Below the pieces are notes generated by a model, which worked only from the letters and a program-made list of their open reading frames with translations, ran no database searches and was not told where the DNA came from. The position numbers and the translations under genes are program-made. A stretch of 27,098 nucleotides of DNA from a virus (lineage: Duplodnaviria > Caudoviricetes), in the IMG/VR virus record IMGVR_UViG_3300008113_007930, positions 1 to 27,098 of that record. One strand, 5' to 3'. Shown here piece after piece: positions 3,801 through 27,098 of this stretch; positions within the stretch are counted from its first letter, which is position 1, and every line of letters starts with the position of its first letter.

Positions 3801-3942
3801 AGTAGTAAATTTATTTGATTATTTCAGAACTAAATTTGATTTCTCAATTATTATTTCACACGTTGATTCTATGCGTGATATGGTTGATAATTTAATCGAA
3901 GTAAACAAGACAAACGGTTTTAGCCAGATTCATCACTCGTAA
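793..3942 (+). CDS. Fused Mre11/SbcD-type nuclease + Rad50/SbcC-type ABC ATPase (T4 gp47+gp46 equivalent)
   Basis: N-terminal metallophosphoesterase motifs: SDVH, GDIVH, GNHD, HHG, GDIHK, YPGS. These are followed by Walker A AANTSGKSS, a long coiled coil with central CKYC zinc hook, signature-like TSGMERF, Walker B/D-loop IAIDEGWGSLD and H-loop IISH. Confidence 0.93.
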   Translation: MDIRHIDTSIEKIDKIFHISDVHIRTLKRHKEYRQVFENLFNYIETHATENSVAVVTGDIVHSKLDMSPELVQMLVDFFNGFTIPTVVILGNHDMNLNNMHRVDAVSPVLDVIKNPNIHFIKENGLFELGGATWNHMAVDKTPADYIRAKDFDATYKIAMHHGAVNTAKTDIGYQISNEHVGVDLFEGHDITLLGDIHKPAQFLDAEKRIAYPGSLIQQNHGEALIHGILVWDLERCTADFAEIENEYGYVTIETQGASIVNAPARMPQRPRIRIKFNDTSAADMKKLIASLRKKYSVEDITIQRTIGSAATAASSSLAIGNVRDVEYQNTLLTEFIDNHFPQATPAEIDAIRHINRTINSKLPAVESVRHTTWHPISFEFDNMFSYGEGNILNFENLQDVCGLFAANTSGKSSLLDAITYTIFDKCSKTGKANEVLNNKKTWFRGTFKFEMNGTVYTIERRGTQNKKKETHVKVDVDFYTESENLNGEERSETNKNIRRYLGTYDDFILTAFSLQADNNNFIEKSQRERKDLLSQFLDITVFEQLYQLAADEIKETAGKLKEYKKTDFAQIIIEADAIINENHDTIQSLETEEDKLQEYRNDLQNRIVELIESKLPTTYDGPDIKILEQQETVLVDKIETLQSDIETAEQTIFELKQQNASQKSLIQSQYNLTEIQTNIETHKKLIEQHNDINARIKEQQGIIDAKERKIKHLESHEYDPNCKYCTSNVFVQDAIEAQDTIDQDRAILTELERQFDELETEIELVSIYQVQYDELTQYSQTIKSTATNIERKELQLQLAESELQTRESELETVLERQDLFRKNETAISHNKLIDTKITLCKDDIEMYTEDIKEIQSQIKSLFGAIEVAKTKRSTAMTQLDSYRQLETEYKAYEYYLDAVKRDGVPYEIVAKALPKIESEINNVLNQIVDFNMVLNTDGKNINGYIIYDEDNYWPLELTSGMERFISSLAIRIALINVSALPRPNFIAIDEGWGSLDSEHISSVVNLFDYFRTKFDFSIIISHVDSMRDMVDNLIEVNKTNGFSQIHHS

Positions 3943-17304: not shown

Positions 17305-17550
17305 ATGAATAAAAAACAAAAACAACACCAAACTACGGTAGCAGGAAATCCATTAGCAGTTAATGTAATTGGTTCTGCAAGAGAAGATTTAGCATTTGCA
17401 TTGAAAGCTTGGAAACGTAAAGTAAAAGCATCAGGTATTTTAGAACGAGTTAAAGATCTCAAAGAATTTGAAAAACCTAGTGTAACAAAACGAAAACAAC
17501 TTCAAGCAGCACAATTTATTCAAAAAATTAGAAGTGCAAATCAAGATTAA
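17305..17550 (+). CDS. rpsU: Phage-encoded ribosomal protein bS21
   Basis: V-x-V...EDLAFALKAWKRKVKASGILERVKDLKEFEKPSVTKRK matches the bS21 pattern (ALxxFKR...GI...EKPSxxR). Small and basic. Location inside a head module is known for bS21-encoding phages. Confidence 0.85.
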   Translation: MNKKQKQHQTTVAGNPLAVNVIGSAREDLAFALKAWKRKVKASGILERVKDLKEFEKPSVTKRKQLQAAQFIQKIRSANQD

Positions 17551-18787: not shown

Positions 18788-20434
18788 GTGAGTATTTCAA
18801 ATTTATTACAAACAAACGATTTCGTACAACGCAACCAAGCTAAAGCGTTGGCATCGAAATGGGAAAAGACCGGTCTATTAGAAGGTCTTCGTGGCGAAAC
18901 CGAAAAAGCAGGTATGGCCCAATTGCTTGAGAACCAAGCACGTCAATTAGTAAAAGAAGCTTCTTCAACTGGTACATCAGCTGGTTCAGAAGAGTGGGCA
19001 GGTGTAGCTCTTCCATTGGTACGTCGTATCTTTGCTGAGTTTGCTGCTAAAGAATTCGTTTCAGTTCAACCAATGAACTTGCCATCAGGTCTTATTTTTT
19101 ACTTAGACTTTAAATATGGTACAGCTCAACCAGGATTTGACGCTGACAATCTTAACCGTACAGGTGATCCATTTGGTTCTCCAAATGCTGATGATTCAAT
19201 GTTTGGTGTAACAACAACTTCAGGTGATCCATCGGGTGGTCTTTATGGTGCAGGTCGTTTTGGTTATTCAATCAACGAAACAGCTAGCATTGTTTCTGCA
19301 GCAACTGGTTCTCAACCAACAGCCGCACAAGTAAATGGTGATTCTACATATTCTGGTTCATCTGATTATAAAATGATAACAGTAAATGTACCTACGGAAG
19401 CAGATTTATATGCAGTTCGTTCATTTATTCTTCGTTCTGGTTCAGCTCAAACTAATATCGTACCAGTTCAAGCATTTTCATCAATTGACAGCAATTACAC
19501 TGCATCATTTGTTGTAACAACTACTCAAGCAGCTGCAATTTCATCTTCAATTGGTGCTGGTAATTTGCGTTTAGTATATAGCAAACAACCAACTGATATT
19601 ACACGTGGTGATTTTGAAGACAACAAAGGTGCATTCTCTAACGGATACAATACTGATATTGATATTCCAGAAATTAACCTTGAAATGCAATCTGAGCCAA
19701 TCGTTGCTAAGACTCGTAAGTTGAAAGCAGTTTGGACTCCTGAATTTGCTCAAGACTTAAATGCATACCATTCAATTGATGCTGAAGCTGAATTGACTTC
19801 AATGTTGTCTGAGTATGTATCTATGGAGATCGACTTAGAGATCTTAGATATGTTGATTGCAGCAGCTCCTACAACTGAGTATTGGTCAGCTCGTAACAAT
19901 ACAATTTGGAATGGTACTTCATTTACAACTTTAGCAGCTGGTACAGCTACTCCAGGATTAGGTGATGGATTCTACAACACTCAAGGTGGTTGGTTCCAAA
20001 CTTTAGGTACTAAACTTCAAAAAGTATCTAATAAAATTCACCAAAAAACATTGCGTGGTGGTGCTAACTTCTTAGTAACATCTCCTGCAGTTGCAACTAT
20101 CCTTGAGTCTATCCCAGGATTTGCTGCTGACACAGATGGTACTAAAATGGAATTTGCGGCAGGTGTACAAAAAATTGGTTCAATCAATAACCGTTACACT
20201 GTATACAAAAACCCATACATGTTAGAAAACGTAATCTTAATGGGATTCCGTGGTGCACAGTTCCTTGAAACAGGTGCTGTATTTAGCCCTTATATTCCTT
20301 TGATTATGACACCGCTTGTATATGATCCGATTAACTTCACTCCACGTAAAGGTGTTATGACACGTTACGCGAAGAAAGTAGTTCGTCCAGAATTCTACGG
20401 AAAAGTATACGTACACGGTCTTAACACTCTTTAA
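18788..20434 (+). CDS. Major capsid protein (T4 gp23-like)
   Basis: LPLVRR, VSVQPMNLPSGLIFYL, AKTRKLKAVWTPEFAQDLNAYH, EIDLEI, FSPYIPL and FTPRKGVMTRY. GTG start preceded by AAGGA. Confidence 0.96.
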   Translation: MSISNLLQTNDFVQRNQAKALASKWEKTGLLEGLRGETEKAGMAQLLENQARQLVKEASSTGTSAGSEEWAGVALPLVRRIFAEFAAKEFVSVQPMNLPSGLIFYLDFKYGTAQPGFDADNLNRTGDPFGSPNADDSMFGVTTTSGDPSGGLYGAGRFGYSINETASIVSAATGSQPTAAQVNGDSTYSGSSDYKMITVNVPTEADLYAVRSFILRSGSAQTNIVPVQAFSSIDSNYTASFVVTTTQAAAISSSIGAGNLRLVYSKQPTDITRGDFEDNKGAFSNGYNTDIDIPEINLEMQSEPIVAKTRKLKAVWTPEFAQDLNAYHSIDAEAELTSMLSEYVSMEIDLEILDMLIAAAPTTEYWSARNNTIWNGTSFTTLAAGTATPGLGDGFYNTQGGWFQTLGTKLQKVSNKIHQKTLRGGANFLVTSPAVATILESIPGFAADTDGTKMEFAAGVQKIGSINNRYTVYKNPYMLENVILMGFRGAQFLETGAVFSPYIPLIMTPLVYDPINFTPRKGVMTRYAKKVVRPEFYGKVYVHGLNTL

Positions 20435-24870: not shown

Positions 24871-26319
24871 ATGGCAACTTGGAAAAAAGTAGTAGTATCC
24901 GGTAGTAACGTATCGCAATTAGTCAATGACGCTGGTTATTTAACATCAGTAACCGCACAGGCAGCATTTGCAACTGCATCATATGATGGTACGTTATTAT
25001 TAGCAAATGGCGCTAATGGTAATTTAACATTTGCATCATCATCGGGTCAAGGTTTAAATATATCAGCAAACTCAGGTACAGACACATTAACATTTGGTTT
25101 AAGTGCTATTCCAAATACAAGTTTAGCTAACTCTGCAGTAACAGTAACTGCAGGCAACGGTTTAACTGATGGCGGATCTGTATCATTAGGTGGTTCGACA
25201 ACATTAAATGTTGGAGCTGGCACGCATATTACCGTTAATGCTAATGACATTGCAGTTAACACTACAACATTAATACCAGCAATATCAGGTTCAATTTTAA
25301 CTACAGTATCAGGTGATATCGCAATCACTGCACAAGGTGTTGCAACAATACAAGCTAACTCAGTAGCATTAGGTACTGACACGACAGGTAACTATGCAGC
25401 TGCAGTGAGTGCAGGAAGCGGCATCTTTGTTGGCGGTACGGCTGGCGAAGGTACGACCTTTACGGTATCTGCAGATTCTGCATCATTGGCGACATATTTT
25501 CGTCAAGATGCATATGCAAACGTAAGTGGTGATATTACAATTAACTCATCAGGCGTTGCAGCAATTGGAACGGGAGTAATTGTTAATGCTGATGTTAATG
25601 CATCTGCCGCAATTGCAGCCTCTAAAATAAATTTCACAGGAACATCATTTGTATCTGCATCGGTTTTATCTAGTCCAGGTCAGGGTCAAGCATTATTAAC
25701 AACAAATGGCGTTGCTGGTTCAACTATTGATTTAGGTTTAGAGACAGGAGACTCACCTCAATTTGTTGCATTAACATTAACAGGCGATGCAGCAGTTAAT
25801 GGTGGCGATATTACAACATCAGCTACTACATTTAACTTAGTTAATTCAAATGCAACTACAGTTAACTTTGCGGGCGCTGCAACAACATTAAATATTGGTA
25901 ATGCATCTGGCACAGCAACAATTGCAGGTAATGCAATAGTTCAAGGTGACTTTACCGTTAATGGTACTACAACATATCTTAACGTACAAGATCTTTTTGT
26001 AGAAGATAAATTTATTATATTGGCATCTGGTTCAGCAACAGCTGGCGATGGTGGTATTATTATTGACCGCGGTTCTGATGCTGCTGGTAATATTGCATAC
26101 GGATATGATTCAGTAACAGATCGTTGGGGATTTCAATCAGGTGTTACAGATACAACTAACACAATAGATCCAACATCTGCATCTGGCGTTAGCGGATCGT
26201 TTGTAGCATATGTATTTACAGAAAATGATCATGGTGCAACAAAACCAATTACCGGTGAGTTTGCAGTTCAAGGCGCACTATATACATCAAATGCTGGCGA
26301 TATTTGGATTTATGCATAA
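24871..26319 (+). CDS. Tail-fibre-like structural protein
   Basis: 482 aa, G/A/S/T-rich with few charged residues. Repeated SGDIxIxxxGVA units, TVTAGNGLTDGG and GDFTVNGTTTYLN. N-terminal WKKVVVSGS. Confidence 0.7.
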   Translation: MATWKKVVVSGSNVSQLVNDAGYLTSVTAQAAFATASYDGTLLLANGANGNLTFASSSGQGLNISANSGTDTLTFGLSAIPNTSLANSAVTVTAGNGLTDGGSVSLGGSTTLNVGAGTHITVNANDIAVNTTTLIPAISGSILTTVSGDIAITAQGVATIQANSVALGTDTTGNYAAAVSAGSGIFVGGTAGEGTTFTVSADSASLATYFRQDAYANVSGDITINSSGVAAIGTGVIVNADVNASAAIAASKINFTGTSFVSASVLSSPGQGQALLTTNGVAGSTIDLGLETGDSPQFVALTLTGDAAVNGGDITTSATTFNLVNSNATTVNFAGAATTLNIGNASGTATIAGNAIVQGDFTVNGTTTYLNVQDLFVEDKFIILASGSATAGDGGIIIDRGSDAAGNIAYGYDSVTDRWGFQSGVTDTTNTIDPTSASGVSGSFVAYVFTENDHGATKPITGEFAVQGALYTSNAGDIWIYA

Positions 26320-26333
26320 AATTATATATAATA
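26303..26333 (+). promoter_or_regulatory. Sigma70-like promoter TTTGGAT-N17-TATAATA
   Basis: TTGGAT 26304-26309, 17-nt spacer, TATAAT 26327-26332, ATG at 26338. Confidence 0.5.
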
Positions 26334-26337
26334 AGTT

Positions 26338-26529
26338 ATGGGCCTCATTAAAAATATTATTTCAAAAAATAACGAAACTCAAGTTTCTAGTGTTAATCAA
26401 TTAGATACACAGGAACTTGAGTTTCTACTAAATACACTCAAACAAACAATGATTATGGGAGAACATGTAGAAATGTTTTATAATCTAGTAATCAAGTTAC
26501 AAAATCAATATGTTGATCAAACAAAATAA
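26338..26529 (+). CDS. Small helical protein (possible fibre assembly chaperone)
   Basis: 63 aa; ungapped similarity to the next ORF. Confidence 0.65.
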   Translation: MGLIKNIISKNNETQVSSVNQLDTQELEFLLNTLKQTMIMGEHVEMFYNLVIKLQNQYVDQTK

Positions 26530-26535
26530 CAAGTT

Positions 26536-26721
26536 ATGGATTTATTTTCTATAGATTTAACGCCGCAAGAAATTAGTATTTGTAGGCAAGCATTAGACAT
26601 TATTACTATTACAGGTAAAGATGCAAAAACTATTGCAGGTCTACAAATGAAATTGGAATCAGAAATTGCAAACATTGCTGCGCAAATAGATTCAAATCAA
26701 TCTACTAAAAAATCTAGATAA
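26536..26721 (+). CDS. Small helical protein, apparent paralogue of the preceding ORF
   Basis: 61 aa; same AAGTT-ATG start context as 26338 and a shared LxxQE...L...IxG...LxxKL pattern. Confidence 0.65.
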   Translation: MDLFSIDLTPQEISICRQALDIITITGKDAKTIAGLQMKLESEIANIAAQIDSNQSTKKSR

Positions 26722-26722
26722 C

Positions 26723-26736
26723 ATATTTATAATAAA
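26723..26736 (+). promoter_or_regulatory. ATATTTATW motif (putative late promoter) ahead of structured leader
   Basis: ATATTTATAATAAA immediately upstream of the GC-richer structured element. Confidence 0.6.
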
Positions 26737-26807
26737 TTGAGATTACTGGCCGCAAGGAAGTAGGCGCACACACGGCATAAGTGTATGTATCTAACCGTAA
26801 TCCACAA
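26737..26807 (+). ncRNA. Candidate structured cis-regulatory RNA (three-way junction) in 5' leader of collagen fibre gene
   Basis: P1: GATTAC.GG (26741-49) with CC.GTAATC (26795-802). P2: CC-GCAA-GG (GNRA loop). P3: TAGGcGCAcACAC-GGCATAA-GTGTaTGTaTCTA. Locally GC-rich in an AT-rich genome. Confidence 0.55.
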
Positions 26808-26818
26808 GGAAATATAAT

Positions 26819-27098
26819 ATGCCAAACTGGAAAAAAGTCATAGTATCAGGCTCGAGTGCTGCCTTAACCTCAGTAACTGCAACCGCAGGATTTACAGGAT
26901 CTTTATTAGGTAACGCATCAACAGCTACCTCAGCATCATTTGCTACTTCTTCATCATTTGCTCAATTTGCAGCAACCCCAACCGTTCAGGGTGTTCAAGG
27001 TATAACCGGTACGCAAGGCACTGTCGGCGCCCAGGGAACGGTCGGCACACAAGGTACGACAGGTGCTCAGGGAACAACTGGTACGCAAGGAGTTACTG
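26819..27098 (+). CDS. Collagen-repeat tail-fibre-like protein, 3'-truncated by window edge (absent from ORF track)
   Basis: ATG 26819 after AAGGA. Translates as MPNWKKVIVSGSSAALTSVTATAGFTGSLLGNASTATSASFA...QGVQGITGTQGTVGAQG..., open to the window end. Confidence 0.85.
   Translation, partial: MPNWKKVIVSGSSAALTSVTATAGFTGSLLGNASTATSASFATSSSFAQFAATPTVQGVQGITGTQGTVGAQGTVGTQGTTGAQGTTGTQGVT
26990..27098 (+). repeat. Collagen-like (Gly-X-Y)n coding repeat
   Basis: GVQ GIT GTQ GTV GAQ GTV GTQ GTT GAQ GTT GTQ GVT: 12 triplets with an 18-nt higher-order period. Confidence 0.9.

Follow-up and report, generated by a model that had tools for sequence, protein, structure and literature searches.

A covarying three-way-junction RNA ahead of a fibre-like gene in T4-like phages, with a core that resembles the c-di-GMP-II riboswitch pocket

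Described leader RNAs and the phage locus

Phage and ribosomal-protein mRNAs are known to carry feedback operators, the T4 gene 32 leader among them; here a structured leader stands before the initiation region of one gene, with pseudoknot-type pairing in some lineages. The c-di-GMP-II riboswitch carries a kink-turn in its P2/P3 arm. In its pocket (RF01786, clan CL00127; PDB 3Q3Z), A69, A70 and G73 lie at the ligand, A14-U60 is named as well, and the equivalent of A69 accepts G or A (PMC13715770). For an aquatic T4-like phage, PMC9004378 describes a predicted glutamine riboswitch in phage Melnitz, a known class located beside a tmRNA and absent from the host. The RNA reported here shares with the operators both the leader position before one gene and the lineage-specific pseudoknot-type pairing, whereas it differs from the Melnitz riboswitch in being uncatalogued and in preceding a structural gene. 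It was found in the same source collection, and by the same kind of evidence, as the candidate RNAs from IMG/VR of Fremin et al. 2023 (PMC10690425), and may be one of their 8,495 unnamed candidates, with no match in the tables searched.

Rfam covariance models gave no match at gathering score in the window (the whole stretch of 27,098 nucleotides analysed here) and none at E<=10 on 26600-26900, and ARAGORN called 0 tRNA or tmRNA genes in the window. In the earlier note the element could not be matched to a hammerhead or a tRNA; both searches agree with this, ribozyme families included, and its novelty with respect to Rfam stands. No title or abstract found in a literature search described the motif, nor did the portions consulted of PMC5737381, PMC5888326 and PMC3764141.

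The window is a piece of a T4-like phage, with the Gp23 capsid protein encoded at 18788-20434; by this protein, the nearest cultured relative is Flavobacterium phage vB_FspM_immuto_2-6A (57.5% identity). A gene for the phage ribosomal protein bS21 (17305-17550, + strand; PF01165, E 3.9e-9) sits between a prohead protease-like gene and the capsid genes and puts the window among the bS21 phages. Freshwater phages with bS21 have predicted hosts in the Bacteroidetes (PMC9723584). Because of bS21 and because the closest cultured relative is a Flavobacterium phage, we infer that the host belongs to the Bacteroidota and is likely of the Flavobacteriaceae type. The annotation of immuto also contains a 7-deazaguanine DNA-modification set (QueC, QueD, QueE, FolE, QueF and DpdA at 18607-37015 of the record, locus L362), unconnected with the motif.

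In the local gene order, gene A (24871-26319, +) is followed by two small ORFs of 63 and 61 aa (26338-26529 and 26536-26721, both +), the promoter-like word ATATTTATA at 26723, the RNA at 26741-26802 and gene B, which starts at 26819 and is cut by the window end at 27098 (+). Gene B (MPNWKK...) is fibre-like, with collagen repeats in this copy (Pfam Collagen, E 3.6e-6, narrowly missing the family cut-off) and matches to PHROG tail and tail-fibre families. Its product is modular: about 16 near-invariant N-terminal residues precede bodies of 67 to more than 800 residues. At least six Gly-X-Y repeats occurred in 8 of 101 downstream genes, counting those read far enough, so that the collagen link drawn in the earlier note is not a property of the family, whose constant part is the first ~16 residues. 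Gene A (MATWKK...) is an upstream paralogue with the same N-terminal peptide and no RNA in front of it. The two genes share W-K-K-V-x-V-S-G-S and then diverge completely; judged by sequence, this is possibly a common attachment motif for modular fibres. A tblastn search of the phage collection with the 29-residue N-terminus of gene B found no match, although immuto carries the gene.

The two small ORFs look paralogous (helix-Gly-helix), match neither Pfam nor PHROG, and are carried singly, together or not at all in different phages. AlphaFold models predict helical hairpins (pLDDT 67.5 and 76.4), and at E<=0.001 Foldseek returned no match in BFVD for the 61-aa ORF or in PDB for the 63-aa ORF, and no named Atlas cluster. 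The RNA core is kept in four loci where no small upstream ORF was called, considering ATG-started frames of >40 aa only (L064, L066, L231 and L268).

Fold, covariation and distribution of the RNA

Based on the homologue alignment and RNAalifold, the complete leader RNA comprises 62 bases (26741-26802, +). The P1 5′ strand, GATTAC(T)GG at 26741-26749 with T26747 bulged and the closing GG at 26748-26749, pairs with CCGTAATC at 26795-26802. It leads directly into the P2 hairpin CC-GCAA-GG (26750-26757), of which the two closing pairs are conserved while length and loop vary. The J2/3 linker AAG (26758-26760) is kept in 54/54 unique protein-selected copies. P3 (26761-26793) has the conserved base URGRY / RYAHCYA with a 2-nt bulge at 26789-26790 and ends in the L3 loop GGCAUAA (26774-26780); a single unpaired base, A26794, separates P3 from the P1 3′ strand. 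P1, P2 with its GCAA loop, the AAG linker, P3 and the single junction A are all present in the sequence as the earlier note had described them. Its P3 stem was right in the 7-nt loop GGCATAA, backed by closing-pair changes in L270 and L032, and differs from the family in the proximal register: the family-wide register, with G26764-U26788, C26765-G26787 and the bulge A26789/U26790, pairs in 136/138 unique copies, the one first drawn in 45/138. The energy model favours the latter for the window copy, which may slip between the two P3 registers. The proposed extension of outer P1 (TTG/CAA) into the AAGGA word at 26806-26810 found no support, as 26806-26807 were 85-88% unpaired in the ensemble; a 7th outer P1 pair is formed in 52/138 unique copies (31% expected).

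Taken alone, the window copy does not fold with an energy above chance (z = -1.0 against shuffles); support for the structure comes from its homologues. Our own covariance model, R1, scored the RNA at 49.6 bits as the sole copy in the window, this copy having been part of the training set. A search with the first 55 residues of gene B confirmed 275 loci; the best 80 of them formed a protein-selected set, and the three-way junction lay ahead of the MPNWKK gene in 79 of these 80. A strict descriptor matched 77/80, two more were variants, and the remaining one (L056) was an internal protein match; many of these loci are near-duplicates, leaving 54 unique copies. A further 120 of about 780 estimated viral (IMG/VR) loci and 120 of about 2,400 estimated metagenome stretches came from pattern scans. 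The scan patterns fix core letters, and the invariance of the core was therefore judged on the protein-selected set only.

From 138 unique copies, 84 were aligned with MAFFT, and RNAalifold returned an 18-pair structure identical to the one drawn by hand. Pairing was possible in 96.2% of 1496 cells, compared with 81.7% for shuffled and 29-48% for slid partners, and changes on both sides were seen in 12/18 pairs. To control for kinship, a FastTree phylogeny was built from 90 rows of gene A, the upstream paralogue, with a median identity of 34%. Along this tree, the P3 pair 26762/26792 changed nine times, always jointly (7/7 independent pairs, p 0.016), and one P1 pair changed jointly in 9.6/10 independent pairs (p 0.002). 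Outer P1 with its bulge paired in 669/690 cells, against 274 and 182 of 690 in slid registers, and in the immuto copy an A-U pair takes the place of an inner P1 core G-C pair. Pairs of the G-U type are frequent on the + strand, which points to selection on RNA, not on DNA. The RNA core is near-invariant beside proteins only 34% identical (median). The fold is a real conserved RNA structure; the covariation that the earlier note had asked for among MPNWKK-type leaders is there, in the paired cells, the double changes and the tree-based pairs.

The motif occurs in the cultured phage immuto_2-6A before gp052 (MPSWKK...; NC_055915.1:137891-137946), as the single copy in this 160-kb record; a second, complete genome of 174 kb likewise has one copy. 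R1 found no copy in Mel-JY01, LR756508 and RM378, and no second copy in the 442,866 bases of the 80 loci, so that gene A is without the RNA. As 34 of the 80 loci and the immuto copy were in the R1 training set, only the absence of further copies is informative in these searches. A first, narrow pattern had returned 14 loci, namely five family members (three identical to the window in this region) and nine unrelated ones. In a GTDB pattern scan covering 120 of about 260 estimated loci, P1 and P3 both paired in 4/120, and the gene context was found only at L140, a phage-like contig in a metagenome-assembled genome (MAG); the other matches were due to chance. This copy (L140:2994-3060, - strand) has the full motif with genes A and B; the MAG is labelled as Pelagibacter, and the contig is likely of phage origin and mis-binned. 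Over 141 Flavobacteriaceae genomes R1 gave five partial matches, several inside genes, which we judged to be chance. At one site, which lies in a host context of a Maribacter MAG (L098:2994-3073, - strand; R1 22 bits), P2 is well paired and P1 weak, without a matching gene; it is probably a chance match too.

The RNA and the initiation region of gene B

The position of the motif is fixed about 12-27 nt before one start codon. A gene of the W-K-K type followed in 116/120 viral and 114/120 metagenome pattern matches, always with Pro2 (AUG-CC), while residue 2 of the paralogue without the RNA, gene A, is Ala in 81/90. The claim of an undescribed cis-regulatory RNA is upheld to this extent: the RNA is without Rfam match, covaries and has a fixed place before one gene. 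Four loci have long spacers (118 nt in L228 and L303, 128 nt in L321 and L504), and coupling is not evident in them. Extra long predicted hairpins lie between the motif and gene B in these four, and in L228 and L303 the 3′ side of the hairpin resembles a degenerate second copy of the 3′ end of the motif.

The first start belongs to an inserted ORF in five loci; behind an SD-like word, the stop of this ORF and the start of the fibre gene overlap by 8 nt, an arrangement by which translational coupling would be kept. The inserts include an HNH domain in L500, NUMOD/GIY-YIG in L281 (both by Pfam), an HNH-like remnant in L220 and short peptides in L470 and L531. Insertions at the start of gene B, either ORFs resembling homing endonucleases or short remnants, were seen in L220, L281, L500, L474, L470 and L531, and L220 and L500 retain the start MPNY....

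By their loop words, 146 copies fall into three classes: 44 of the class to which the window belongs (L3 GGCAU), 25 with UGGC or UGGU in the loop of P2 (L2), and the 77 that make up the commonest class; since the classes are defined by these words and cluster on the tree, the pairing counts are not independent. The earlier note had proposed that folding gates translation through an overlap with the SD. The AAGGA word lies outside conserved P1 and is not conserved; an SD-like word is present in just 11/44 copies of the window's class and 9/77 of the commonest, and the proposal holds only in the separate L2 class (25/25), where P1 covers half of the SD. Bacteroidetes ribosomes fail to recognise SD sequences (PMC7797042). 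A second idea, mimicry of 16S helix 27 by the P2 loop, was rejected: the loop is GCAA in just 15/44 copies of the window's class, others having a long hairpin.

A different link to the start codon emerged from L3. In the window, GGCAUA (26774-26779) is complementary to U-AUG-CC (26818-26823), a predicted, lineage-specific pseudoknot with a predicted duplex energy of -8.9 kcal/mol, and the start window is the best downstream partner of the loop in 37/44 copies of this class. In the L2 class it is the P2 loop, with UGGC or UGGU, that bears the complement. In the 77 copies of the commonest class, loop-start pairing is absent (permutation p 0.15), with the exceptions L216 and L231, in which the loop became ACUCACU with a matching AGUGAGU just before the AUG; about half of all copies are without such pairing. 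Pairing between a loop and the initiation region was found in 45/48 copies with a spacer of at least 20 nt and in 29/98 with a shorter one, and in a separate metagenome set in 16/22 and 28/84, respectively. Correspondingly, the distance from the end of P1 to the AUG has a median of 9 nt in copies without and 14 nt in copies with loop pairing. The link between class and a U at -1 vanished in independent pairs (p 1), and covariation matching the start region was seen neither for X nor for P3 position 42. The idea that the core or the P1 5′ strand pairs with AUG-CC in every copy was discarded, as no covariation supported it.

Upstream of the RNA, ATATTTATA (26723-26731, +) is a putative late promoter element. 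It occurs seven times in the window, all on the + strand (2.15 expected), at 3942, 6888, 8787, 20523, 21503, 24840 and 26723, ahead of seven genes. In reverse complement it resembles a T4 late-promoter word, although its placement indicates that the + strand is the one used. Of 146 motif copies, 107 have a [T/A]ATTTAT word upstream, mostly 18-25 nt before the junction GG, and 39 have no promoter-like word nearby. A scan for sigma-70 promoters and terminators gave nothing above chance, and no terminator-like site was found in 26200-27098. RNA evidence comes from 4 of 18 runs, as low-depth contigs (mostly 2-20), and none of the pieces listed spans the RNA core; one exact contig piece starts at 26797, which bears neither on the start site nor on the level.

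Resemblance to the c-di-GMP-II pocket and possible modes of action

Searching for described RNAs with a similar core, we compared the phage motif with 16 RF01786 matches from 101 genomes (12 over cut-off). A descriptor of the phage core, relaxed at two positions after the resemblance had been noticed, fits 10/16 of them at the ligand pocket, for which our labels include 37-41 and 11-12. Its background is 8-17 per Mb of random DNA, one site in 92,688 nt of flanks and 2/8000 shuffles, at which rate several of the 4227 Rfam families could match by chance, compared with about 0.1 among riboswitch classes. In both RNAs, GG/CC closes P1, and one unpaired base joins P1 to a helix URGRY / RY-AA-CY(R) that contains a 2-nt bulge; three helices meet at this site, and both occupy a leader position. 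The fourth pair of the helix is G-C or A-U in the c-di-GMP-II matches and G-U or A-U in the phage copies. At the position of A69, A is found in 137/138 unique copies, and the one deviating row has its 3′ strand shifted. At the A70 position, 88 of the 138 have A, 43 U, two C, two G and three a gap; the window has U.

The pocket helix is a nested hairpin in the phage RNA, where it is the pseudoknot P4 in c-di-GMP-II; phage P2 is a simple hairpin, and the phage RNA has neither the kink-turn arm nor A13, as no base lies between P1 and P2 (the labels A13 and A61 follow from the numbering offset in PMC13715770). G73 is replaced by A in 136/138 phage copies, and among 90 viral matches no G73 form with the context of the family was found. 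R1 had no match at c-di-GMP-II loci. Membership in c-di-GMP-II was therefore rejected, on the missing Rfam score, the nested hairpin, the lack of A13, the change of G73 to A and the lack of a kink-turn; judged on sequence and predicted pairing, the core resembles the pocket without family membership. The earlier statement that no riboswitch matches thus holds for the Rfam score and falls short in that the core resembles the c-di-GMP-II pocket, in 10/16 matches by the relaxed descriptor. A possible tandem riboswitch was noticed in one clostridial genome of the comparison (L349), where a weak c-di-GMP-II match is followed after about 270 nt by a sub-threshold c-di-GMP-I-GGC match (1850-1924, +; 57.5 bits).

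The likely host family offers a setting unlike that of c-di-GMP-II, with RF01786 in 0/141 Flavobacteriaceae genomes and GGDEF over cut-off in 2/151. DAC, in contrast, was found in 147/151 genomes of this family, to which the Maribacter genome G004 also belongs, which would make c-di-AMP the obvious candidate if the pocket survives. For c-di-AMP, replacement of G by A where the lower ligand base is read would be the expected direction. No cyclic-dinucleotide enzyme is named in the annotation of immuto at bases 1-100,000 and 118,000-160,410.

Translational gating of gene B, of whatever kind, appears probable to us. In F. johnsoniae, little structure around the start and adenines at -3, -6, -12 and -13 promote initiation (PMC7797042), and with this preference a folded leader would repress. 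Against gating stand the commonest class, in which loop-start pairing is absent, and the four loci with spacers of 118-128 nt, which do not fit. Our tentative first choice is a translational OFF switch, its fold locked by a nucleotide messenger of the host, for which c-di-AMP would be the best lead. Transcription would start just upstream of P1, from the ATATTTATA element and between the ATATTTAT word and P1; the weak, AU/GU-rich outer P1 would form fully only when the core is occupied; and the ligand would bind at the junction and the 2-nt bulge, locking the fold. The folded state would then block initiation, in short-spacer copies as P1 reaches to about 9 nt from the AUG, in long-spacer copies including the window by pairing of the loop with the AUG-CC region, and in the third class by P1 covering half of the SD. 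The ligand could be a cyclic dinucleotide, with the change of G73 to A favouring adenine. A core that outlasts its protein neighbours, the small ORFs having diverged or gone uncalled, favours an unchanging ligand. Unlike most riboswitches, though, the RNA has one gene context only, and 141 genomes held no convincing host copy; A for G73, a variable A70, and the lack of the A13 floor, of the pseudoknot and of the kink-turn weigh against a nucleotide ligand as well. In its most specific form, which we regard as rather unlikely, the family would form a class of riboswitches, carried by phages, that respond to c-di-AMP (or to a cyclic dinucleotide of the CBASS type), with the c-di-GMP-II pocket un-knotted into a hairpin junction of 55-65 nt and a G73-to-A specificity swap, tuning the amount of fibre to the second-messenger state in lytic Flavobacterium phages.

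A protein partner is nearly as likely as a ligand, because the N-terminus of gene B is about as conserved as the RNA: its ~16 residues are about as invariant as the core. A phage protein or a conserved host RNA-binding protein would bind the junction and shut off gene B, and the structure does lie within or adjacent to the initiation region of this gene, in single copy before one structural gene and with the same occlusion geometry as in the ligand model. Candidate binders are the W-K-K N-terminus of unassembled fibre, paralogue A or a late regulator, and such an operator could balance two virion proteins that share an attachment peptide. The small upstream ORFs were rejected as cognate binders, as they diverge strongly or are uncalled in four loci and are plain helical hairpins without a significant fold match, which counts against this reading too; moreover, gene A has the same peptide yet no RNA, and the c-di-GMP-II-like core is left unexplained. 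We rate it as unlikely that the element needs no partner at all, its AAG linker docking into the bulge and filling the pocket itself, so that the fold would set a fixed translation rate, protect the 5′ end of the late mRNA or recruit host or phage-bS21 ribosomes. The junction G-C pair has a probability >0.5 in 126/146 copies, a fold predicted without ligand; P1 begins near the putative start site in most of the 107/146 copies with a promoter-like word, and the window encodes bS21. Yet 39/146 copies are without this word, so that the RNA does not form a 5′ end in every case; moreover, a loop paired over the AUG would lower translation instead of raising it, and constant attenuation would not require a core this invariant. 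All readings outside nucleotide ligand, protein and ligand-free fold jointly take a minor share. Small size, an invariant junction and bulge, and variable peripheral hairpins would suit a new self-cleaving ribozyme, or a signal for cutting of the polycistronic late mRNA upstream of gene B, which we hold to be very improbable, considering that no Rfam family matched at E<=10, ribozymes included, that no cut was seen in the reads (low-depth contigs only), and that the fixed distance to one AUG fits translation better. Just as improbable is a trans-acting or virion-packaged small RNA that shares the transcript of gene B, for instance a sponge for a cyclic-dinucleotide immune signal: the pocket resemblance, the promoter-like word directly upstream and the precedent of phage protein sponges for such signals (PMC11722364) speak for it, but no terminator-like site follows the RNA within the scanned region, and the tight AUG-CC link and the coupling retained after insertions point to action in cis.

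Altogether, the motif represents a real, uncatalogued, cis-positioned RNA of many aquatic phages of the Flavobacterium type and, as far as sequence comparison can suggest, would most likely switch off translation of a modular virion protein, with a ligand locking the fold. The motif is abundant, covaries well and has no Rfam entry, and its occurrence in a cultured phage-host pair makes it directly testable. Were its ligand a cyclic dinucleotide, the RNA would represent a second fold for c-di-AMP or a related signal and, as a minimal form of the c-di-GMP-II pocket found in nature, could serve in biosensors; a lytic phage would then be reading host signalling to set the composition of its virion. 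If it binds a protein, it would provide a new handle on the control of late phage translation in Bacteroidota, whose ribosomes largely ignore the SD.
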